The position numbers and the translations under genes were made by a program. A stretch of 64,000 nucleotides of DNA, taken from positions 96,001 through 160,000 of the forward strand of contig JBMNFY010000001.1 in assembly GCA_050949565.1 (NCBI GenBank). The letters are read 5' to 3'. Below, in pieces: positions 3,001 to 13,780 of the stretch. The notes under the pieces were generated by a model. The model saw only the letters and a program-made list of their open reading frames with translations, was not told where the DNA came from and did no database searches. Positions within the stretch are counted from its first letter, which is position 1, and every line of letters begins with the position of its first letter. The DNA is from Kiritimatiellia bacterium (GTDB lineage Bacteria; Verrucomicrobiota; Kiritimatiellia; RFP12; UBA1067).

Positions 3001-5495
3001 CCGGCGGCACGGTCACGGCCGTCAGCACCTACTCTGGTGCAGGCATCGGCGGCGGAATGAGCGGCGCGGGCGGCACGGTCAACATCTCCGGCGGCGCGGT
3101 CACGGCCACCGGCGACAACGGCGGCGCGGGCATCGGCGGCGGGAAGAGCCGCGCGGGCGGCACAGTGACGATTTCCGGCGGCAGGGTCACGGCAACGGGC
3201 CGCAGCGGCGGCGCAGGCATCGGCGGCGGCACGGGTAGCGCAGGCGGCGCGACGGCCATCTCCGGCGGCACGGTCACGGCGGCGGGAAGCTACAGTGCCG
3301 CAGACATCGGGCCGGGTGACGGCAGCACGGACGCCAGCGCGAACACCTTCACCGGCGGCTCGATCCTGCTCGTCAACGACAGCATTGCACTCGCCCCCTC
3401 GAACAACACGGATCCGGTCTTCTGCGCCACGCTGGCGGGCTTCACGCCCAACACCGCCGTCGCCATCACAGGGCTGGCGGAATACGGCGTCACGGACATC
3501 GCCGCCGACAACGGCGGAGCCATCCACCTGTGGCTCCCGGACGGCGACTACAATTTCACGGCCAACGGGTGGCGCTTCGTGGTAACGATCCAGGACGGCG
3601 TCGTCCACATCCTCGGCTCCACGGGCGTGACGGTCAACGGCGAGGAGATCGCGTTCGGTTCGGCGGATCCCGCCGTCGGCTGGATCTACGACGAGGCAAC
3701 CGGCCTGCTCCGGCTCACGAACGCGGGGCCATTCACGCTTGCCGGCACCAACACGGAGGGCAAGGTGTGCGTCGTCGTGCCGCAGGGCGTGACAAACGAG
3801 GTCACGCTCTCGAACTTGGTGCTCCAAGCTTCAGACGAAGACCAATGCGTCTTCGCACTGGAGACGAATGCCGTCGTCTCGCTCTCCCTCGCGGGAGAGT
3901 GTGATTTGACGTCGGCGGATTACCGCGCGGGTGTCGAAGTGCCGGCGGGTGCGTCGCTCACCATCACCAACGCGCCCGGCGACGATGCAGGCGCACTGAC
4001 GGTGACGGGCGGCTATGGCGGTGCCGGCATCGGCGGCGGCTATGATGCCAACGGCGGTGCGGTGACCGTTAACGGCGGCACGCTCACGGTCACGGGCGGC
4101 TTCGCCGGTGCGGGTATCGGCGGCGGTTATAACTACAGCGACATCCCCAACGCGGATACCGACTCGGGCGGCATGGTGACCGTCAATGGCGGCGCGATCA
4201 CGGTGACGAGCGGCAACTATGCGGCCGGCATCGGCGGCGGCGCCTTTGGCGGTGGCGGTACGGTGACCGTCAACGGCGGTGTCGTGACGGCGACGAGCGG
4301 CTATGGCGGCGCGGGCATCGGCGGCGGCTACAATGGTATCGGCGGCGCGGTGACCATTAACGGCGGTGCGCTCACGGCCACGGGCGGTTACGCCGGCGCG
4401 GGCATCGGCGGCGGTTATAATTACAGCAACATTCCCAATGCCGAAACCAACTCGGGTGGTACGGTGACCATCAACGGCGGCACGGTGTCGGCAATCGGCG
4501 GCCGATATGCCGCCGGCATCGGCAGCGGCGACTATGGCGGTGGTGGCACAGTGAACATCTCCGGTGGCACGGTCACGGCCACGGGTGGCTTCGACGGCGC
4601 GGGCATCGGCGGCGGCTATGATGGCCAAGGCTGCACGGTGACAATCACCGGTGGCGGGGTTTCCGCAACCGGCGGCGACTATGCAGCCGGCATCGGCGGC
4701 GGTTACACTTACAATAGCACCGCCGCTACCGCCGCTGCGGGCGGCACGGTGGCGATCTCCGGCGGACGCGTCATGGCGACCGGCGGCCGGTACGCCGCGG
4801 GCATCGGCGGCGGCTCCGGCTGGACGGTTGAAGGCGGCGATGGCGCGGATCTGACCGTCGCAGGCGGCACGGTCTTCGCCACCGGCGGCGCGGACGGCGG
4901 CCCGGGGGTCGGTAGCGGCGTCGGCAATGTAGGAAACGGCGGCTCTGCGCCGCACGTTTCCGGCACGTGTACCTTCACCGGCGGTTCCATCCGCATCGAC
5001 GGCGGCTATGCGGCGACTGACCCTACCGATGGCGAGGCGCGCGTCTGGTGCGTGACGGTGACGAATCTCGTGCCCCATGCGGCGGTCACGGTCACATCGC
5101 TCGGCACCTACGGTGTCAACGACCTCTTCGCCGACGAAAACGGCAGGCTCTACCTCTGGCTGCCGGATAACGATTACACTTTCACGGCGGGCGGCTTCGG
5201 CTACACGGCCGCTGTGAACGGCGCGGATGCGACGGCGACACTCTACCTCGCGGCGCCGGCCTTCGCCACGGACGGCTCGGCGATTGTTGTCAGCGGCACG
5301 ACGCTCTCCATCACGATCGCCAACGCCCAGAGCGGAGCTTATTACACGCTCTACGGGGCACCCGAGCCCGGCGGGCCTTGGACGCCGGAGCAGAGCGTCC
5401 CCGCGACGGTGGACGGCACCCTCACTTTCACGCTCTCCAACATGACAGCGCCCAAACGCTTCTTCAAGGTGGAGGCCAGCACTGACCAGCCATAA
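1..5495 (+). CDS. Large secreted Gly-rich (GAGIGGG-repeat, beta-solenoid-like) surface protein, paralogue 1; 4 tandem modules; 5' end cut by the window edge, frameshifted at about 1230-1440
   Basis: ORFs 3..1352 and 1509..5495 carry the same module (GVTVNG..GW.Y...LTNAGPFTISGTN..VRVVV..VTLSNL..NAPGDDA, then GAGIGGG/GTVNISGG repeats, then NTFTGGSI..IHLWLP). The 1230-1500 gap encodes the module linker in shifted frames. Signal-peptide tail VAAFAAVATA-AP at the start; ends RFFKVEASTDQP. Confidence 0.8.
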
Positions 5496-5514
5496 GATAG
5501 AGAGGCTTGCAGAT

Positions 5515-5563
5515 GTGGCACGGGCATCTTGCCCGTGTTTCATGGGCGGGACGCCCATGCCAC
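5515..5563 (+). repeat. 49-bp double-hairpin REP/MITE-like element, copy 1
   Basis: GTGGCACGGGCATCTTGCCCGTGTTTCATGGGCGGGACGCCCATGCCAC; near-identical cores at 19250, 27717, 32939 and (reverse) 53885. Imperfect outer inverted flanks GAGGCTTGC (about 5502) / GCAAGAGCCTC (about 5570-5580). Confidence 0.9.
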
Positions 5564-5588
5564 GGGGGAGCAAGAGCCTCCAGCGAAA

Positions 5589-5665
5589 GGACAAGAAACA
5601 TGCGACAAGGGACAAGAGGAGACATGAGACGAGAGACCCCTTTCTTGTCTCACGTCTCTTGCCCT
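5589..5665. repeat. Inverted GAGACAA-type heptamer array (intergenic hairpin, no ORF inside)
   Basis: GACAAGAAACATGCGACAAGGGACAAGAGGAGACATGAGACGAGAGAC followed by TTTCTTGTCTCACGTCTCTTGCCCT. Confidence 0.75.
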
Positions 5666-5694
5666 GGCTCTCACATCAAACCCAAAGGAACACC

Positions 5695-8600
5695 ATGATG
5701 AATGCGAAAACCATTTTGACACTTGCTTGTTCGGGCCTGTTTGCCGCCACCGCCACCGCCGCCTCCACCGGGGTGACGATCAACGGCATCATGCTCGACG
5801 ACGCCGTCTCGACCAACGACATCGGCTGGGCGTACGAGTCGGCCACCTCGAACCTCGTGCTTTCCGGTGCGGGCCCCTTCACGCTTTCCGGCACGAATAC
5901 GGAAGGGGCTGTGCGCGTCGTGGTCCCGACGGATGTGACGAACGAGGTCACGCTCTCAAACCTGACGCTCCAGGCACCGTGGAATGTCGTAACGCATTAC
6001 TGTCCCTTTGCACTGCAATCGAACGCCGTCGTCACGCTCTCCCTTGCAGGGACGAACACGCTCACGGCCACGGCGTACCGCGCGGGTCTCGATGTCCCGA
6101 TCTACGCGGAGATCACGATCACCAACGCGCCCGGCGATGACGCGGCATCGCTCACCGCACAGGGCGGCGCCTACGGTGCGGGCATCGGCTCATCCCACCG
6201 CGCAGATGCCGGCAAAATGGTTTTTTGCGGCGGTGTCGTCACGGCCACCGGCGGTAGCGACGCCGCAGGCGTCGGCGGATGCGGCACCGACAACCGAGCG
6301 GAATCCAACGGCGGTCGAGGCGGCGTGGTGTACATTTACGGCGGCACGCTTGCCGCGACGGGCAGCGGCTACAGCGCGGGCATCGGCAGCGGTTACCGGC
6401 GCGCCCTGGGCGTGGTGCGGATTTGGGGCGGCACGGTGACGGCCATCGCCGGCAACATGGGTGGCCCGGGCATCGGCGGCGGTGCCGGCGACAGCCAAAA
6501 CAGCGCCATGCACGGCGGAAAGACATACATCTACGGCGGACACGTCACCGCGACCGGCAGCAGTTACGGCGGCGCGGGCATCGGCGGCGGCTACAACGGC
6601 CCGTGCGACCCGATAACCATTACCGGCGGCACGGTGCTGGCAACGGGGCTGGGAGGCGCCTACGACATCGGACGGGGACGCGACTCCAAAAACCCCACCT
6701 ACGTCCCCCAATTCACCGGCGGCTCGATCCGCCCGGGCACCTCTGAGGTCGCACCCACGCCCAACAACGGCTCGGCAACAGTCGCCTATGTGGTGTGGTC
6801 CGGCTTCGAGCCGGGCGAACCCGTCGTTTTCCCCGCCTTCGGCTCGGGGCTCCCGGACTATTACGGCACCCATGACATTTTTGCCGACGAGGCCGGGTGC
6901 ATCTACCTCTGGTTCCCGAACGCCCGCGACAAGACCTATACGCTCGTGGCCAACGGATGTACCAATACGGTCGCGATCAAGGACGGCGTGGGATCCTCCG
7001 GCGTGACGGTCAACGGCGTGGACGCCGTTTTCGGGCCGCAGGGTTACAACGAGGGCGGCTGGTCCAACTCGAGCCGCGACATCAGGCTGTTCGGCACCGG
7101 CCCGTTCGTCGTCTCGGGCGCCAATGCGGCCAGCGGCGTCCGTTTGGTCGGCACCGCCAACGCGATGAACACGGTGGTCCTCTCGAACCTGACGCTCGGC
7201 GCGGGCGGCGACAGCCGATCCGCGCTTCTGCTGGAATCGGGCGCCAACATGACGCTTGTCCTCGAAGGCACGAACACCCTCTGGTCCGGCCCCAAGCGCG
7301 CGGGCATCGGCGTGGGGGCGGGACGGACGCTCTCCATCAACAACGCGCCCGGCGATGACGCGGCAACGCTCGTCGTCACAGGCGGCAGCGGCGGCGCTGG
7401 CATCGGTGGCAACCGATACCTCGACGGCGGCACCGTGACCATTTCCGGCGGACGGGTGCTTGCCACCGCCGGTACCAGCGGCGCGGGCATCGGCGGCGGC
7501 TCGGACGGCTCGGGCGGTTCGGTGACCATCTCCAACGCCACGGTCATCGCCATGAGCGACGCCGGCGGCGCGGGCATCGGCGGCGGTGTTGATGGCAACA
7601 ACGGCGGTACCGTCGTAATCGCCAGCGGCACGGTCACCGCAACGAGCCGCACCGGCGCGGGCATCGGCGGCGGCTCGGGGGGATCGGGTGGCTCGACGAC
7701 GATTTACGGTGGCACCGTTACGGCCACGAGCACCGGCGGCGGCGCGGGCATCGGCGGCGGCTACGATTACGGCGGCACCGGCGGTACGATCACGATTATC
7801 GACGGAAACGTGACCGCGACCGGCGGCGACGGCGGCGCTGGCATCGGCGGTGGCTACATGGGCACCGGCGGTGCCATCACGATTTCCAACGGCGTGGTGA
7901 CCGCCACGGGCGATGGCGGCGGCGCGGGCGTCGGCAGTGGTGCATATAGTGGTGATTTTGAAGACGGCTATACCGTGACAATCGCCGGCGGGCAACTCAT
8001 GGCCGCAGGCGGCGCGGGCGGCGCGGGCATCGGCGGCGGCGACAGGGGTGCCATCGGCACGGTCGCGATTTCCGGCGGTACCGTCGCGGCGACGGGCGAT
8101 GACGGCGGCGCGGGCATTGGCGGCGGCTCAGGCCCCTACAACGCCGGCGGCACCGTCAACATCTCCGGCGGCAAGGTGACGGCGACAGGCGATAATGGCG
8201 GCGCAGGCATCGGCGGCGGAGCCTGCTTCTTCTACTCCGGCACCACCGTCACGATCTCTGGCGGCACGGTCGCGGCACAAGGCTCCTTGGAGGCGCAGGA
8301 CATCGGTTCTGGTCACAACGAATACGGTGGCGGCGGTGTGAGCAGCATGGAGATGACACCGGGTAACCAAGATGACGGGCCCGGCACGAACACCTTTACC
8401 GGCGGCTCGGTCTATCTCGCGAACGACAGCATCGCCCCCGCACCCAGCAACGACACGGATCCTGTCTGGTGCGTGACGGTGACGAATCTCGTGCCCCATG
8501 CGGCGGTCACGGTCACATCGCTCGGCACCTACGGCGTCAACGACCTCTTCGCCGACGAAAACGGCAGGCTCTACCTCTGGCTGCCGGATAATGTTTACTC

Positions 8601-8916
8601 TTTCACGGCGGGCGGTTCCGGCTACACGGCTGCCGTGAACGGCGCGGATGCGACGGCGACACTCTACCTCGCGGCGCCGGTCTTCGCTGCGGACGGCTCG
8701 GCACTCGTCTTCAGCGGCACGACGCTCTCCATCACGATCGCCAACGCCCAGAGCGGGTTTTATTACACGCTCTACGGGGCACCCGAGCCCAGCGGGCCAT
8801 GGACGCCGGAGCAGAGCGTCCTCGTGACGGCGGACGGCAATCTCGTTTTTGAAAGCATTGACGCGGCGGCTCCCAGGCGCTTCTTCAAGGTGGAGGCCAG
8901 CAGTGACCAGCCGTAA
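5695..8916 (+). CDS. Secreted Gly-rich GAGIGGG-repeat surface protein, paralogue 2 (2 modules)
   Basis: AAGGA RBS before ATG 5695; signal peptide MMNAKTILTLACSGLFAATATAA; same module as paralogue 1; ends RFFKVEASSDQP. Confidence 0.85.
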   Translation: MMNAKTILTLACSGLFAATATAASTGVTINGIMLDDAVSTNDIGWAYESATSNLVLSGAGPFTLSGTNTEGAVRVVVPTDVTNEVTLSNLTLQAPWNVVTHYCPFALQSNAVVTLSLAGTNTLTATAYRAGLDVPIYAEITITNAPGDDAASLTAQGGAYGAGIGSSHRADAGKMVFCGGVVTATGGSDAAGVGGCGTDNRAESNGGRGGVVYIYGGTLAATGSGYSAGIGSGYRRALGVVRIWGGTVTAIAGNMGGPGIGGGAGDSQNSAMHGGKTYIYGGHVTATGSSYGGAGIGGGYNGPCDPITITGGTVLATGLGGAYDIGRGRDSKNPTYVPQFTGGSIRPGTSEVAPTPNNGSATVAYVVWSGFEPGEPVVFPAFGSGLPDYYGTHDIFADEAGCIYLWFPNARDKTYTLVANGCTNTVAIKDGVGSSGVTVNGVDAVFGPQGYNEGGWSNSSRDIRLFGTGPFVVSGANAASGVRLVGTANAMNTVVLSNLTLGAGGDSRSALLLESGANMTLVLEGTNTLWSGPKRAGIGVGAGRTLSINNAPGDDAATLVVTGGSGGAGIGGNRYLDGGTVTISGGRVLATAGTSGAGIGGGSDGSGGSVTISNATVIAMSDAGGAGIGGGVDGNNGGTVVIASGTVTATSRTGAGIGGGSGGSGGSTTIYGGTVTATSTGGGAGIGGGYDYGGTGGTITIIDGNVTATGGDGGAGIGGGYMGTGGAITISNGVVTATGDGGGAGVGSGAYSGDFEDGYTVTIAGGQLMAAGGAGGAGIGGGDRGAIGTVAISGGTVAATGDDGGAGIGGGSGPYNAGGTVNISGGKVTATGDNGGAGIGGGACFFYSGTTVTISGGTVAAQGSLEAQDIGSGHNEYGGGGVSSMEMTPGNQDDGPGTNTFTGGSVYLANDSIAPAPSNDTDPVWCVTVTNLVPHAAVTVTSLGTYGVNDLFADENGRLYLWLPDNVYSFTAGGSGYTAAVNGADATATLYLAAPVFAADGSALVFSGTTLSITIANAQSGFYYTLYGAPEPSGPWTPEQSVLVTADGNLVFESIDAAAPRRFFKVEASSDQP

Positions 8917-8918
8917 GA

Positions 8919-9753
8919 CAAGAGACATGAGACAAGAGACGACGCAGATCATCGGAGCATACGGCGGGTATCGCAAAACGTTCGCCTTTGGCTATACGTG
9001 TCTGGTGTACCACGCCACCTGCGCGTTCTGCCGCCGTAACTACGACCGCACTAACGACGCGCTCGGCAAGACCGTTGGTCAGATGGTGGGGGCGGCTCGC
9101 AGTGCGCGTCAAAACATCGTTGAGGGCTCGGCGCGAGCCGGAACGAGCCGCGAGACCGAACTGCGGCTCTATGACGTGGCGAAGGCTTCGCTCGAAGAAC
9201 TCGCCGGTGACTACGAGGCGTTTCTCATCGAATGCGGCGAGGCACCCTGGCGCGCGGACGATCCGCGCGCTGTGAAGGTGCTCGCGTTGCGGCTGGATCG
9301 TTTCACGGGTGATGACGCCCTCAATATACGCCATGATTTCGGTGTCTACATTCTCGCTATGCGGGAGCGGTTCGCCGAGTGGCTTGAAGCAAAGGATGCG
9401 GTGATAGCCGCGAACGCGATTCTGCTGGTGATCGACCAGGTGTGTCGGCTGTTGCACCGGCAGATGGAGTCGCTCGCGGCGGACTTCCGCGAGGAAGGCG
9501 GCTTCACGGAACGGCTCTCCAAGGCGCGTCTGGAAACACGCGATGCGCAGATGGCGGCGCAGGGCGCCCCGTCGTGTCCCAAGTGCGGCAAGCCCATGCG
9601 CAAGATGATCGCCCGCAAGGGCCGCAATGCGGGCAACCCCTTTTGGAGTTGCACCGGATATCCCGACTGCAGCGGAACACGCAATTACACGGAAGGGCAA
9701 GAGACATGAGACGCGAGACCCCATCCCGTCTCTTGTCTCATGTCTCTTGCCCT
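8919..9753. repeat. Heptamer-derived direct and inverted repeats bracketing the four-helix-bundle gene
   Basis: 8919-8940 CAAGAGACATGAGACAAGAGAC is the exact reverse complement of 9728-9749. CAAGAGACATGAGAC occurs directly at 8919-8933 and 9698-9712. 9694-9719 pairs with 9728-9753 at 24/26 positions. Confidence 0.9.
8927..9709 (+). CDS. Four-helix-bundle protein (TIGR02436 / 23S-rRNA-IVP-like) with suffix domain and C-terminal topoisomerase-type C4 zinc ribbon
   Basis: GGYRK..., QMVGAARSARQNIVEGS, ELRLYDVAKASLEELAGDYEAFL, AANAILLVI..LL.RQ...L..DF.EEGGFTERLSKAR, then CPKCGKPM..ARKGRNAGNPFWSCTGYPDC. Confidence 0.85.
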   Translation: MRQETTQIIGAYGGYRKTFAFGYTCLVYHATCAFCRRNYDRTNDALGKTVGQMVGAARSARQNIVEGSARAGTSRETELRLYDVAKASLEELAGDYEAFLIECGEAPWRADDPRAVKVLALRLDRFTGDDALNIRHDFGVYILAMRERFAEWLEAKDAVIAANAILLVIDQVCRLLHRQMESLAADFREEGGFTERLSKARLETRDAQMAAQGAPSCPKCGKPMRKMIARKGRNAGNPFWSCTGYPDCSGTRNYTEGQET

Positions 9754-9773
9754 CAACCCAAAGGAACACCATT

Positions 9774-12227
9774 GTGAATGCGAAAACCATTTTGACATTT
9801 GCTTATGCGGGCCTGTTTGCGGCCACCGCCAGCGCCGCCCCGCTCGGCGTGACGGTCAATGACATCATGCTCGACTCCGACGGCGCATCCGACATCGGCT
9901 GGACATACGAACCGGCCACCTCGAACCTCGTGCTTTCCGGCGCGGGTCCCTTCACGCTGGCCGGCACGAACACGGAAGGGGCTGTGCGCGTCGTGGTCCC
10001 GACGGATGTAACGAATACAGTCAAGCTCGCGAACCTGACGCTCAAAGCGACGAGTGCAAATCAATGCGCCTTCGAGCTGGGAACGCGTGCCAACGTCTCG
10101 CTCATCCTCGCAGGCGCGAACACGCTCGCATCGGGCAGCAACCGCGCGGGGCTCCAAGTTGCGGTGGGGCGGACCCTCTCCATCACCAACGCGCCGGGCG
10201 ACGAGACGGCATCGCTCTCCGCCACAGGCGGAGGCAGCAGCGCGGGCATCGGCAGCGGCTACAACATCAACGGCGGCAGGGTGACCATCAACGGCGGGGA
10301 AATCACGGCCAAGGGCGGCAGCAACGGCGCGGGCATCGGCGGCGGCTACTATGGCGACGGCGGCAGGGTGACCATCAACGGCGGCACGGTGATGGCGCAG
10401 GGCGGCAGCTACGGCGCGGGCATCGGCGGGGGCTACTATGATCACGGCGGCATCGTGACCATCAACGGCGGAGAAATCACGGCCACGGGCGGGAGCTGCG
10501 CCGCAGGCATCGGCGGAAGCTACAATCGAAGCGGCAACACGACCATCAACGGTGGCACGGTCACGGTCAAGGGCGGTCTCGACGGCGCAGGCATCGGCGG
10601 CGGCTACAAGCGTTCCTGCGGCACGGTGGCCATCACCGGCGGCATCGTGCAGGCAGTGAGCCTGGGCCACGGCGCGGGCATCGGCAATGCCTTCGAAGCA
10701 AGCGCGGGAGGAACGGTCTACAATCTCCGGCGGTACGGTCACGGCTACGGGCGGCGATTATGCCGCCGGTATCGGTGGCGGTAACAACGGCGGCGGCTGC
10801 GCGGTCGAAATCTCCGGCGGCACAGTGACGGCGACAGGCGGCTACTACGGCGCGGGCATCGGCGGCGGCCAATACAGAGACGGTTGCACAGTCGAAATCT
10901 CCAGTGGCACAGTGACGGCGACAGGCGGCCAGTGCGGCGCGGGCATCGGCGGCGGTTATGGCGGCACCGGCGGCACGAACATCATTTCCGGCGGCACGGT
11001 CGCGGCGACGGGGGGCCGCTACGGTGCCGGCATCGGCGGCGGCATCGGCGGCGCAGGCGGCGCAGTGACCATCAGCGGCGGTATCGTGACAGCCACAGGC
11101 AGCGACTTTTACGGTGCGGGCATCGGTGGTGGCGGCGGTGGCGGTGGCGGCGTGGTGACCATCTCCGGAGGCACCGTCACGGCCAACGGCGTCCTTTTGG
11201 GCGCGGGTATAGGCTCGGGCGGCTATGCCGACGCGTCATCCGGCGGCGACGGCGGTACGGTGACCATCACCGGCGGCTCCGTCACGGCCGGCGGCGGCGA
11301 TTTCGCGGCCGGCATCGGCGGCGGCGATGGCGACGCGGGCGGCACGACAACTATCTCCGGCGGCGAGATCACCGCTACCGGCGGCCAATACGGCGCCGGC
11401 ATCGGCGGCGGCAACAACAACGGGGTCATCGAAGGAAACACCATCGAGAACGCAGGCCCGGGCGGCACGGTGAACATCACCGGCGGACGGGTTACCGCGA
11501 CCGGCGGCAAGTGTGCCGCGGGCATCGGTGGCGGTACCGGCCAGCAGGTTGCTGGCAGTGAAGGTGCAGTCCTGACCGTCTCCGGCGGCACGGTCTTCGC
11601 GATCGGCGGCGCGGGCGGTGCGCCGGGCATCGGCCCCGGCCTTGGCAATGTGGAGGAAGGCGACACCGGGAACTTGCCGGAGGCCTCCGGCACGAGCCTC
11701 TTCACCGGTGGCTCCATCCGCATTGATGGCGGCTATGCAGCAGCCGCGCCCTCGAACAGCTTACGGAGCGCGTCTGGTGCGTGACGGTGACGAACCTCAC
11801 GCCCAATGCGGCAGTCGTCGTAACAGCGCTCGGCGCCTACGGCGTCGTCGACCTCTTCGCCGATGAAACCGGCAAGCTCTACCTCTGGCTACCCAACGAC
11901 GACTACGCCTTCACGGCGGGTGGCTTTGGTTACACGGCGACCGTCGCCGGTGCGGCGGCCACGGCTACCCGTAGCCTCCCCGTGCCGGTCTTCGCCACGG
12001 ACGGATCGGCGATTGTTGTCAGCGGCACGACGCTCTCCATCAAGATCACCAACGCCCAGGTCGGGGCTTATTACACGCTCTACTGGACGGACACGCTGGG
12101 CGGAACCTGGAATAAAGGCCCGAGCATCCAAGCGGCGACGGGTGGCGACCTCGTCCTCACAACGAACATCGACGCGACGGCGTCGTGCCGCTTCTTCAAG
12201 GTGAGGGCCAGCGAAACCCAGCCGTAG
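9774..12227 (+). CDS. Secreted Gly-rich GAGIGGG-repeat surface protein, paralogue 3 (1 module); frameshifts at about 10720 and 11765 (pseudogene or sequence error)
   Basis: ORFs 9627..10784, 10687..11784 and 11781..12227 join into one paralogue. Leader AACCCAAAGGAACACCAT(T/G) and N-terminus NAKTILT are shared with paralogue 2; GTG start; ends RFFKVRASETQP. Confidence 0.75.
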
Positions 12228-12235
12228 GGTGGGGG

Positions 12236-12288
12236 AGGGCAAGAGACAAGAGACGAGGTGTCTCCTCTTGTCTCGCGCCTCTTGCCCT
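12236..12288. repeat. Inverted GAGACAA-type heptamer hairpin (no ORF inside), followed by a CCTAAAT/CCTAACC-type heptamer run
   Basis: AGGGCAAGAGACAAGAGACGAGG...CCTCTTGTCTCGCGCCTCTTGCCCT, then CCTAACCCCAACTCCTAAATCCTACCTCCTAAATCCC. Confidence 0.75.
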
Positions 12289-12340
12289 CCTAACCCCAAC
12301 TCCTAAATCCTACCTCCTAAATCCCAAATTCCAACCAGCC

Positions 12341-13780
12341 ATGAACAACACAACCACCAACCACAACACCCCATCTCGCATGATGCGCCTTTGCGCCTTC
12401 GCGCTCGCGCACATCGTGACCCTCCTCCCCCTGACCGCATCCGCCGCCGGCTTTGGCGGCGAAACCTGCGGTCGCTACACGTACACGATCGATGAAAACA
12501 AAGCCATTATCATAGGCTTCGACGACTACGAATACGAAGGCGACCTCATCATCACCAATCAACTCGACAACTACACTGTCACGGGTATTGGCCAGAGTGC
12601 CTTTGCCTACCGTTCCACCCTCACGTCCGTGACCATCCCCGACACCGTCACGACCATCGAATACCGGGCCTTCGCGAACTGTGCCTCCCTCACGAACCTC
12701 TTCATCCCCAACAGCGTCACCAACATCGACTATGGTGCCGATCATGGTGTCGTTCAAGGAAGTCCTTTGCTCATCCACATCACCGTTGCGGATGACAACG
12801 AAACCTACGCCGACATCGACGGCGTGCTGTTCGACAAAGCATGCTCCACCCTGCTGGCTTGTCCCAACGGCCGCGCCGGTGCCTACGCGATCCCCGACGG
12901 CGTCACGACCATCGTTGCCGAAGCCCTCAGGTACTGCACGGCCCTCACCAGCATCACCCTTCCCGACAGCCTTGCGACCATCGGCAAAGACGCCTTCGAG
13001 GACTGCACGTCCCTCACCAACATCACCGTGGCAGCGGACAACCCGAACCATGCCAGCGAAGACGGTGTGCTGTTCGACAACGGTCTTACCACATTGCTGA
13101 CATGTCCCGCCGGTTTCTCCGGCGCCTACGCCGTCCCCGACGGCGTGACCGCCATCGCCGATTGGGCTTTCCGTAATCGTACCGGTCTCACGGCCGTCAC
13201 CCTCCCCGACACCGTCACGACCATCGGATACCAAGCCTTCGATTGCTGCACCGCCCTGACCTCCATCACCATTCCCGATAGCGTCACGAACATCAGTTAC
13301 GGCGCCTTCGCGGATTGTACCGCTCTGCCGTCCATCATCATCCCCGGAAGCGTGAAGCACCTCGAATCCTATACCTTCGGCGGCTGTGAATCCCTGACCT
13401 CCGTCCTCTTCACCGGCAACGCCCCAACACCCGATTGGTATAACAACGCTTTTGCCTATACATCCCCCACACTCACATTCTACTATCTCCCCAACACAAA
13501 AAATTGGGGGGCCAAATTCTACGGGCGTCCCGTTGTCTGCTGGAATCCTGCCTTCAGCACCATCCCGCCGCCGCAAATCGACGCCTCGGGCGCGTTTGCC
13601 TTTACCCTCACCGGCAATACGGACATCCCCGTCCGCGTCGAAGCCTGCGACAATCTTGTCTCCACGCTATGGGTCACCGTCACCAATGCCACCATGTCAA
13701 GCGACGGCACCCTTGACTTCACCGACCCCGACGCCGCCTCCCATCCCTCGCGTTTCTACCGCTTCACCTTCCCGCATTAA
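12341..13780 (+). CDS. BspA-type leucine-rich-repeat (LRR_5) surface protein
   Basis: Repeated LTSVTIPDTVTTIxxxAFxxC and DGVLF motifs; signal peptide ..LLPLTASA; C-terminal DFTDPDAASHPSRFYRF. Confidence 0.9.
   Translation: MNNTTTNHNTPSRMMRLCAFALAHIVTLLPLTASAAGFGGETCGRYTYTIDENKAIIIGFDDYEYEGDLIITNQLDNYTVTGIGQSAFAYRSTLTSVTIPDTVTTIEYRAFANCASLTNLFIPNSVTNIDYGADHGVVQGSPLLIHITVADDNETYADIDGVLFDKACSTLLACPNGRAGAYAIPDGVTTIVAEALRYCTALTSITLPDSLATIGKDAFEDCTSLTNITVAADNPNHASEDGVLFDNGLTTLLTCPAGFSGAYAVPDGVTAIADWAFRNRTGLTAVTLPDTVTTIGYQAFDCCTALTSITIPDSVTNISYGAFADCTALPSIIIPGSVKHLESYTFGGCESLTSVLFTGNAPTPDWYNNAFAYTSPTLTFYYLPNTKNWGAKFYGRPVVCWNPAFSTIPPPQIDASGAFAFTLTGNTDIPVRVEACDNLVSTLWVTVTNATMSSDGTLDFTDPDAASHPSRFYRFTFPH

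Follow-up and report, generated by a model that had tools for sequence, protein, structure and literature searches.

A heptamer-armed four-helix-bundle gene cassette between surface-protein genes of a Kiritimatiellia bacterium

Between two surface-protein genes of a Kiritimatiellia bacterium (GCA_050949565.1) lies a gene for a protein of 260 amino acids (aa) that is enclosed by inverted copies of a short tandem repeat. The gene and its arms, here called the cassette, are at positions 8919-9753 of the window, i.e. the 64,000-nucleotide (nt) stretch C1:96001-160000 of a 4.66-Mb assembly in 21 contigs, whose best relatives are metagenome-assembled genomes of Kiritimatiellae. DNA runs from wastewater, bioreactors and biogas contain the organism in abundance. 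The genes that border it, one on either side and in the same direction, both encode beta-helix surface proteins (Pfam Beta_helix_3). The parts of the locus are as follows.

8915..8941, plus strand: 5′ arm, four tandem 7-mers (AAGACAA GAGACAT GAGACAA GAGACG), directly after the upstream stop codon (8914-8916) and containing the cassette start codon.
8927..9709, plus strand: cassette gene, 260 aa, whose product, by profile and fold matches, would consist of a four-helix bundle of S23p type that contains an insert, the helices of the TIGR04258 suffix and, at the C terminus (residues ~216-253), a C4 zinc ribbon.
9694..9719, plus strand: second arm copy AGGGCAAGAGACATGAGACGCGAGAC, which is the 5′ half of a local hairpin and contains the TGA (9707-9709).
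9720..9727, plus strand: 8-nt loop of the local hairpin.
9728..9753, plus strand: 3′ arm, GTCTCTT GTCTCAT GTCTCTT GCCCT, with 9694-9719 (24/26) or 8919-8941 (23/23) as partner.
9760..9776, plus strand: ribosome-binding site (RBS) AAAGGAAC and GTG start codon (9774) of the next beta-helix surface-protein gene.

The perfect inverted repeat around the gene, put at 22 nt in an initial annotation of this DNA, proves to be 23 nt long (8919-8941 with 9727-9749), 100% complementary and with 785 nt between its arms. The same annotation had one 15-mer at both gene ends providing the start and the stop, and this is exact: CAAGAGACATGAGAC is at 8919-8933 and again at 9698-9712, as the identical first 15 nt of a 22-nt direct repeat (8919-8940 and 9698-9719) that is 91% identical overall. 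The open reading frame (ORF) thus has its ATG (8927-8929) within the first GAGACATGAGAC and its TGA within the second. The local pairing of the 3′ arm was likewise found as described, 26 nt of 9694-9719 with 9728-9753, 92% complementary. Alternative in-frame starts further upstream, TTG at 8849 and GTG at 8903, fall within the upstream gene, whose last position is 8916. The motif GAGACANGAGAC, with at most one mismatch, occurs 12 times in the window when 0.74 occurrences are expected, and none of 100 shuffles reached 12; 11 of the 12 are at four intergenic junctions of a single cluster of beta-helix surface-protein genes. A scan of 8500-10000 gave neither a sigma-70-like promoter nor a plus-strand intrinsic terminator, the stretch after the hairpin included, and transcription of the cassette would most likely be by read-through from the upstream surface-protein gene. 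In 5000-13000 no Rfam family reached its gathering score, the only matches being sub-threshold ones to microRNA-like hairpins. A 301-aa ORF on the minus strand (8885-9790) covers the entire cassette and is probably spurious, a result of the high G+C.

As modelled, the cassette protein is an S23p/Xcc0516-like four-helix bundle followed by a TIGR04258 suffix and a zinc ribbon of the GRF/topoisomerase type. It belongs to TIGR04258 with 65.2 bits (cut-off 40) over residues 159-205, C-terminal to the bundle. The bundle scores below threshold both with TIGR02436 (21.3 bits, or 22.3 in a six-frame search of the genome, with a cut-off of 24) and with PF05635 (23S_rRNA_IVP; 21.6 bits, cut-off 33.8); five long paralogues in the same genome pass TIGR02436 at 24.1-34.8 bits. 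The AlphaFold model (pLDDT 79, from an alignment of 7 sequences only) has as its top Foldseek match 2gsc, the solved S23p member Xcc0516 (probability 1.00, TM by target 0.76, E = 0.09), and also matches 2rld (BT_0352; probability 0.72), while a profile of our alignment A1 finds 2gsc with E = 0.0026. The family motif is given as GxxRxxxSxxxNxxE in the accessible part of PMC3936711. Its SxxxNxxE portion is present, as S59, N63 and then IVE, with S59 and N63 invariant in A1; the position of the motif R, where the alignments are read by eye, is unlike that of the short form of the protein. The initial annotation had suggested that the Zn ribbon could supply nucleic-acid binding; by fold and profile the C-terminal ribbon resembles the single-strand-binding fingers of GRF proteins and topoisomerases. 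The cysteine pattern CxxC...CxxxxxC is present, with 29.1 bits to PF01396 (Zn_ribbon_Top1; cut-off 32). The fold matches are to zf-GRF structures (5u6z, 7omk and 7jl5, APE2 and NEIL3 among them) with probability 0.98-0.99 but E = 0.5-0.7, and TOP3A was found by profile search with E = 0.03. The zf-GRF fingers of APE2, NEIL3 and TOP3A bind single-stranded DNA.

S23p / 23S_rRNA_IVP genes are very common, several of their products have solved structures, and they are annotated as scattered single genes in restriction, CRISPR and housekeeping operons; we know of no function for the family. The setting in which its members were first seen is the intervening sequence (IVS) of rRNA. In Coxiella, according to the available text of PMC4990558, the IVS has a 28-bp terminal stem that is cut mid-stem by RNase III and an S23p ORF in its loop, and the distribution of ORF-bearing IVSs is sporadic, suggesting horizontal spread. 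The cassette resembles such elements (Coxiella burnetii, Leptospira and others) in having a stem, of 28 bp in Coxiella and 23-26 bp here, whose loop holds a gene from that protein superfamily, in having no transposase, in being carried within a host transcript and, as far as that source goes, in its sporadic distribution. It is unlike them in lying in a protein-coding operon rather than an rRNA helix, in having arms of tandem 7-mers whose unit differs between cassettes, in having a second arm copy that makes a local 3′ hairpin, and in encoding a protein twice as long, with suffix domain and zinc ribbon. Cutting by RNase III is a property of the Coxiella IVS and, for the cassette, an analogy. 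The proposal in the initial annotation, that a four-helix-bundle gene within inverted repeats constitutes a transposase-less, IVS-like cassette in a protein-coding operon, is upheld by profiles, fold and arms. Elsewhere, as far as the accessible portions of the papers go, the family has been reported from rRNA insertions of CPR (candidate phyla radiation) bacteria (PMC11270868), and 18 of its genes from within cas loci, for instance between cmr3 and cmr2, where they were treated as associated genes (PMC3936711). Papers that turn up under the names of the family deal with diversity-generating retroelements, rRNA insertions in CPR bacteria and cas loci, and in the searchable literature, whose coverage ends short of subscription journals, none was found that links heptamer or inverted repeats to four-helix-bundle genes. 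The window cassette is a new long-form member of the class of IVS-like cassettes, undescribed in searchable papers.

On whether the arms belong to the gene or to the site, our reading departs from the initial annotation, which had it that heptamer hairpins pre-existing in the surface-protein operon were entered by a transposase-less cassette, the two alternative folds then acting as a stem for excision or as a switch coupled to translation. Gene-less hairpins of the GAGAC family upstream of paralogous surface-protein genes speak for pre-existing hairpins. A scan of metagenomes with the cassette protein points the other way. It gave 80 loci at 43-100% identity, of which 75 were analysed. At least three GAGAC/GTCTC are in the 160-nt flanks of 17 of 18 non-redundant relatives at ≥71% identity versus 9 of 49 below it (p = 1e-8), the more distant clades having other units (CGACATT, GGGACNGGC, GTCGGAA, AGGACAA). 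The neighbours of the GAGAC group are mutually unrelated, being beta-helix, BspA leucine-rich-repeat (LRR), IrrE/helix-turn-helix, PD-(D/E)XK, FGE-sulfatase, pilin-like and HemD genes, and 19 distinct sets of neighbour families are found over 35 loci (65 neighbour ORFs, Pfam). Since the GAGAC unit accompanies the gene through these unrelated neighbourhoods, the arms come down with the gene, and the target site does not provide them. The extent of the common unit can be read from pairs of loci: L135 and L136 are 89.5% identical over the ORF, the 197 nt before it and the 123 nt after it, and are then unalignable for ~1300 nt on each side, and L108 and L113 share the ORF with 65 nt of the 3′ hairpin. 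As judged from these alignments, the arms travel with the gene in the GAGAC clade, gene and arms being one unit across sites. Of 80 long-form loci fetched from other phyla 76 could be analysed, and 36 of these 76 have a flanking tandem array, versus 12 of 105 neighbour ORFs (p = 1e-7).

Some loci have further peculiarities. At L136 the first ~85 nt of the downstream host gene (ATGCTGAAGAAR...GGCGGTGTG) have a slightly diverged second copy directly before the cassette, the insertion being flanked by a long duplication of host DNA. The metagenome contigs L127 and L128 become 100% identical 1 nt before the start codon and stay so downstream, whereas their upstream parts, both of them GTCTC arrays, are unrelated; the 5′ arm has either recombined there or the assembly is broken within the repeats.

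Sister cassettes at conserved sites bear on the same question. Two cassettes of this genome are in a conserved MoxR/DUF58/Bat operon, and the corresponding junctions of other genera are either short and free of hairpins, filled with the cassette, or occupied by a hairpin or array that lacks the gene.

First junction, G010, G014 and G016: 40, 2 and 19 nt respectively, no repeats.
First junction, G004: cassette.
First junction, G020 (L191, G020:C10 between 68849 and 68991): gene-less 142-nt hairpin of another heptamer family.
Second junction, G020: orthologous cassette with the same TTAGGAG arms.
Second junction, G014: 38 nt with a one-sided heptamer-like array.

The arms at L191 differ from those of the cassette that the genome of the window has there, so that this junction was hit independently. 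For the sister cassettes these comparisons show that cassette and arms are present or absent together at tight operon junctions. With GAGAC repeats going with the gene in unrelated neighbourhoods, and with empty junctions of 2-40 nt devoid of a hairpin at the sister cassettes, entry into hairpins that were there beforehand, together with the switch or excision stem attached to it, is now quite improbable.

The usual layout in the relatives is hairpin, RBS, ORF, hairpin, and relatives at ≤88% identity start with MT(E/Q/P)IIG, five codons downstream of the window start. An ATG within the repeat is a feature of the sub-lineage in the surface-protein cluster (the window cassette, its orthologue in genome G029, and L106-L112), in which only the 5′ half of the upstream hairpin is present. 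It seems that in this sub-lineage the upstream hairpin lost its 3′ half and that what was left of it was joined to the ORF, whose start codon is thus supplied by the repeat. On this comparison the window locus is a derived form, and its start codon in the repeat a quirk of the sub-lineage. Of the ATGA start and stop, which the initial annotation proposed to look for in related genomes, the start holds for the sub-lineage but not for relatives at ≤88% identity. Among relatives at ≥71% identity 6 of 16 have TGAGAC at the stop codon, among all relatives 8 of 64, and a strict autocorrelation detector placed none of 31 downstream arrays at the stop codon, so that a stop codon within the first repeat was dropped as a general rule and kept as a trait of a sub-clade.

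The four-helix-bundle genes of this genome, which the initial annotation had singled out as the set in which matching flanking repeats might be looked for, number 15 when collected, nine short and six long with the suffix (TIGR04258 itself has seven matches in the genome). Scored by the best ungapped inverted match between the two flanks, 11 of the 15 reach at least 12, versus 77 of 2927 other genes as delimited by a crude, purpose-made gene caller (Fisher p = 1e-14). Arrays are on both sides of 5 of the 15 and of 38 of 2871 others, and 14 of the 15 are on the same strand as the gene upstream (p = 0.001). By eye the flanks are mostly tandem 7-mers, typically 3-6 units to an array, the downstream array being complementary to the upstream one, and several loci have a full hairpin on each side. 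The unit is specific to the locus: GAGACAW, GTCGCRA, GAATCGA, GTGGACN, CTGGGTN, AGTGGCT, GTGCGAR, GGTTTCW, GAATAAY, GGAGTTA, GAACGCA and GGTTCAA were found. Most of the nine short-form paralogues, which do not have the zinc ribbon, still have arms. Single-linkage clustering of the units fused nearly all of them and was uninformative, and a strict genome-wide blastn scan for inverted repeats missed most of the degenerate arms, returning mainly insertion sequence (IS) ends and the common TTAGGAG repeat. On these counts, heptamer-armed four-helix-bundle cassettes form a class within this genome, of which the window cassette is one member.

Could the gene merely have come to lie among repeats that are everywhere? 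Period-7 arrays number 625-639 in 4.66 Mb, with one at ~8% of gene boundaries, and intergenic heptanucleotide repeats with no link to this gene family are on record from other bacteria, TAACTGA in Beggiatoaceae, GGACCGG and MTYCTGA in Geobacter (PMC4679880, PMC2700814, as far as their accessible text goes). Those repeats are also tandem 7-mers near start codons, but are described there as mostly direct and as having one genome-wide unit; no four-helix-bundle gene is mentioned, 'four helix' and 'S23' being absent from the main texts available. Chance proximity is hardly credible and was rejected in view of the excess among the four-helix-bundle genes, of the inverted order in which the same unit is present on both sides of the gene, and of the way in which the unit follows protein phylogeny across metagenomes. 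Large repeat families that adjoin a four-helix-bundle gene are AACTCCT (61 arrays), AACGCAG (55) and AAGTCGC (18). The commonest heptamer genome-wide, CTCCTAA/ATCCTAA (TTAGGAG/TTAGGAT; 172 of 625 arrays, and also at 12287-12334 of the window), flanks the four-helix-bundle gene at C17:395371 as well as many ordinary genes.

The locus is thus probably a promoterless gene cassette of IVS type that carries its own arms of short tandem repeats, here 7-mers with a GAGAC core. The arms would fold into hairpins at the gene ends and may be the cis-acting ends of the element. Being repeated both directly and invertedly around the ORF, they would allow recombination or replication slippage to remove it, and perhaps to add it; for such arm-mediated gain and loss we see about an even chance. 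Loss of the ORF would leave behind a gene-less hairpin, and such hairpins are at three paralogous junctions of the gene cluster. The same unit of hairpin plus RBS is upstream of two paralogous surface-protein genes, and two gene-less hairpins stand out.

5585..5665, plus strand: gene-less heptamer hairpin of GAGAC type at the paralogous junction in front of the surface-protein gene that precedes the cassette (-32.9 kcal/mol, z = -3.8).
12235..12290, plus strand: gene-less hairpin of GAGAC type between the stop codon of the downstream paralogue and a BspA-type LRR gene (-41.3 kcal/mol).

The 3′ arm of the second of these, with the CTCCTAA repeats that follow it, matches the 3′ end of the filled L113 cassette, the LRR genes behind the two being only 41% identical. 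In a DNA contig from run X9, position 8920 is followed by four different letters and then by 9693; the contig differs elsewhere too and so is a paralogue or a relative, not an allele. An orthologue of the cassette (94% aa identity) is in the same junction, also filled, in genome G029, where within the 5′ arm the third 7-mer differs in step with its 3′-arm partner (AAGAGAC versus GAGAGAC) and the second copy differs independently. This orthologous cassette, at L011 (G029:C3:788600-792800), has an IS of ~1.96 kb inside the 3′ arm of its hairpin; the IS encodes a transposase of 636 aa on the other strand and has inverted ends of the GGTGTGATTCAAAATAG type.

A number of observations weigh against this reading. 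No true empty allele of the window junction was found: in 40 relatives searched for the orthologous site only G029 matches, and it is filled, the surface-protein genes being too repetitive in their sequences for an orthologous empty site to be assigned. No target-site duplication is seen, and the cassette encodes no mobility enzyme. In the census, 4 of the 15 genes score below 12, those at C17:1755903 and C10:181184 having no clear arms, and the caller that delimited the comparison genes overlooked the cassette gene itself and its antisense ORF. Only 21 of the 625 period-7 arrays are within 250 nt of a four-helix-bundle gene, most arrays being unaccompanied; one master gene for each repeat family, as with RAYT and REPIN, was rejected on this count. 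Outside the clade the association weakens and most periods are of 8-9 nt, so that a 7-nt unit is not universal. The covariation in G029 amounts to a single position in a repetitive arm. At the RNA level, the long-range stem is thermodynamically of negligible weight in a fold of 891 nt, and the mismatches in the arms are of 167 sense-strand G-U types versus 231 antisense (p = 0.0016), whereas selection on the sense RNA should have given the reverse. The G-U comparison used 148 non-redundant loci, with 73 long-range and 95 local pairings above score, and is limited by ambiguity of register in tandem repeats.

Of the two mutually exclusive folds put forward in the initial annotation, both can be drawn on paper, but only the local one has appreciable weight. 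On its own the local hairpin has -47.2 kcal/mol (z = -9.6), and in the 891-nt model of the transcript its pair probability is >0.998; a fold with the long-range stem imposed is 7.7 kcal/mol less favourable, and the pairs of that stem have a probability of ≤7e-6. In favour of a switch, a ribosome terminating at the TGA in the second arm copy would release the 3′ arm, and the long-range 23-nt complement is perfect and so better kept than the local 24/26. It is conceivable that the long-range stem matters, though only if the second arm copy is held open, for example by such a ribosome. With this energy difference and no G-U excess in the sense strand, the case for a switch is weakened. The structure adopted by the transcript would be the strong local 3′ hairpin and not the long-range stem, and, by analogy with the cutting of 23S IVS stems by RNase III, this hairpin may process or stabilise RNA between the cassette and the next gene. 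An RNase III gene is present in the genome. In view of the negative G-U test, the RNA-processing step taken by itself is put forward tentatively, and we lean somewhat against it. RNA libraries gave a 167-nt contig (X19) over 9508-9640 with zero differences and another (X20) over 9355-9507 with 12; being assembled contigs they cannot show RNA ends, no contig spans an arm, and their cover of the cassette gene is limited to 9355-9640.

If the arms are the gene's own, the protein may be what recognises them. The tandem repeats could be putative binding arrays for the oligomeric product of the cassette, one repeat for each subunit of an S23p ring or for each zinc ribbon, on single-stranded RNA or DNA, and with start and stop within arrays the protein would repress its own translation or mark the ends of the element. 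The unit changes with the protein clade (GAGAC, CGACAT, GGGACNGGC, GTCGGAA, AGGACAA), many units appear by eye to have a GAC core, though these were not counted, arrays usually have 3-6 units, and Xcc0516 is described as a homopentamer in the accessible part of PMC4990558; the likeness of the ribbon to the fingers of APE2, NEIL3 and TOP3A is in keeping with this. Plain co-inheritance, however, explains the correlation of unit and clade equally well, the nine paralogues that mostly have arms do so with no zinc ribbon, and a period of 7 nt is unsuited to one face of duplex DNA, so that binding arrays are unlikely, if worth keeping in mind. A bolder version, in which the cassette is a self-recognising mobile unit that has no nuclease and whose protein, with its single-strand-binding zinc ribbon where present, binds its own tandem repeats, the 625 gene-less arrays and hairpins being decayed or non-autonomous derivatives, is decidedly unlikely. 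A known system close to the cassette is the REP (repetitive extragenic palindromic) or REPIN sequence with its RAYT gene, where too a gene is flanked by inverted short repeats that are also scattered intergenically as hairpins. RAYT, in contrast, is an HUH nuclease while the cassette protein has no known catalytic domain, and the heptamer units are many and mostly far from four-helix-bundle genes. A connection with the genome's own RAYT-like HUH genes was rejected: of six inspected, three are flanked by one other repeat, of the GGGGTCGTAGTTTGACATTAGAC type, and none by heptamers.

Read-through expression, a promoterless ORF and a cassette-specific hairpin site are also the marks of integron cassettes, each an ORF with its attC site, and the genome does encode an integron-type integrase (C17:750483-751412; TIGR02249, 358.6 bits, cut-off 265), for which the hairpins might be attC-like sites. 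The imperfect palindromes, with cassette-specific sequence and conserved shape, and the several loci with hairpin, ORF and hairpin in that order would suit such an origin. The core motifs of attC are RYYYAAC and GTTRRRY. By eye, the arms, which are made of tandem repeats, have neither, and the cassettes are single and dispersed in operons rather than arrayed beside the integrase, around which 25 kb contain three stray RYYYAAC...GTTRRRY matches, no cassette array and ordinary heptamer arrays only, with no obvious attC array in the ~10 kb to either side. With the integrase present but neither array nor attC cores, the integron link was rejected as very improbable.

Taken as armed cassettes, the S23p-family genes of this genome are discrete units with their own hairpins, and the repeat unit appears to evolve together with the gene. 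This would join three puzzles, namely the intervening sequences of rRNA, the orphan four-helix-bundle genes in operons, and the intergenic heptamer repeats, and it offers the testable hypothesis that the protein acts on its own repeats. Were self-recognition true, it would provide an origin for intergenic heptamer repeats of bacteria and a function for the S23p/IVS family. For annotation it is a warning that such genes and hairpins may be insertions and not parts of the host operons in which they lie. As a hairpin of cassette type stands before each paralogous surface-protein gene, a piece of a selfish element may here have become an intercistronic RNA element.

Two minor features of the neighbourhood may be added. 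The surface-protein gene downstream (9774-12227) is in three overlapping frames (9627-10784, 10687-11784 and 11781-12227), its breaks being either two frameshifts or assembly errors in glycine-rich repeats. Between two surface-protein genes, at 5515-5565, is a different palindromic repeat, GGCACGGGCATCTTGCCCGTG...CATGGGCGGGACGCCCATGCCAC, and the same palindrome is found again elsewhere in this genome (G000:C9, ~29.7 kb), just downstream of a RAYT-like gene.

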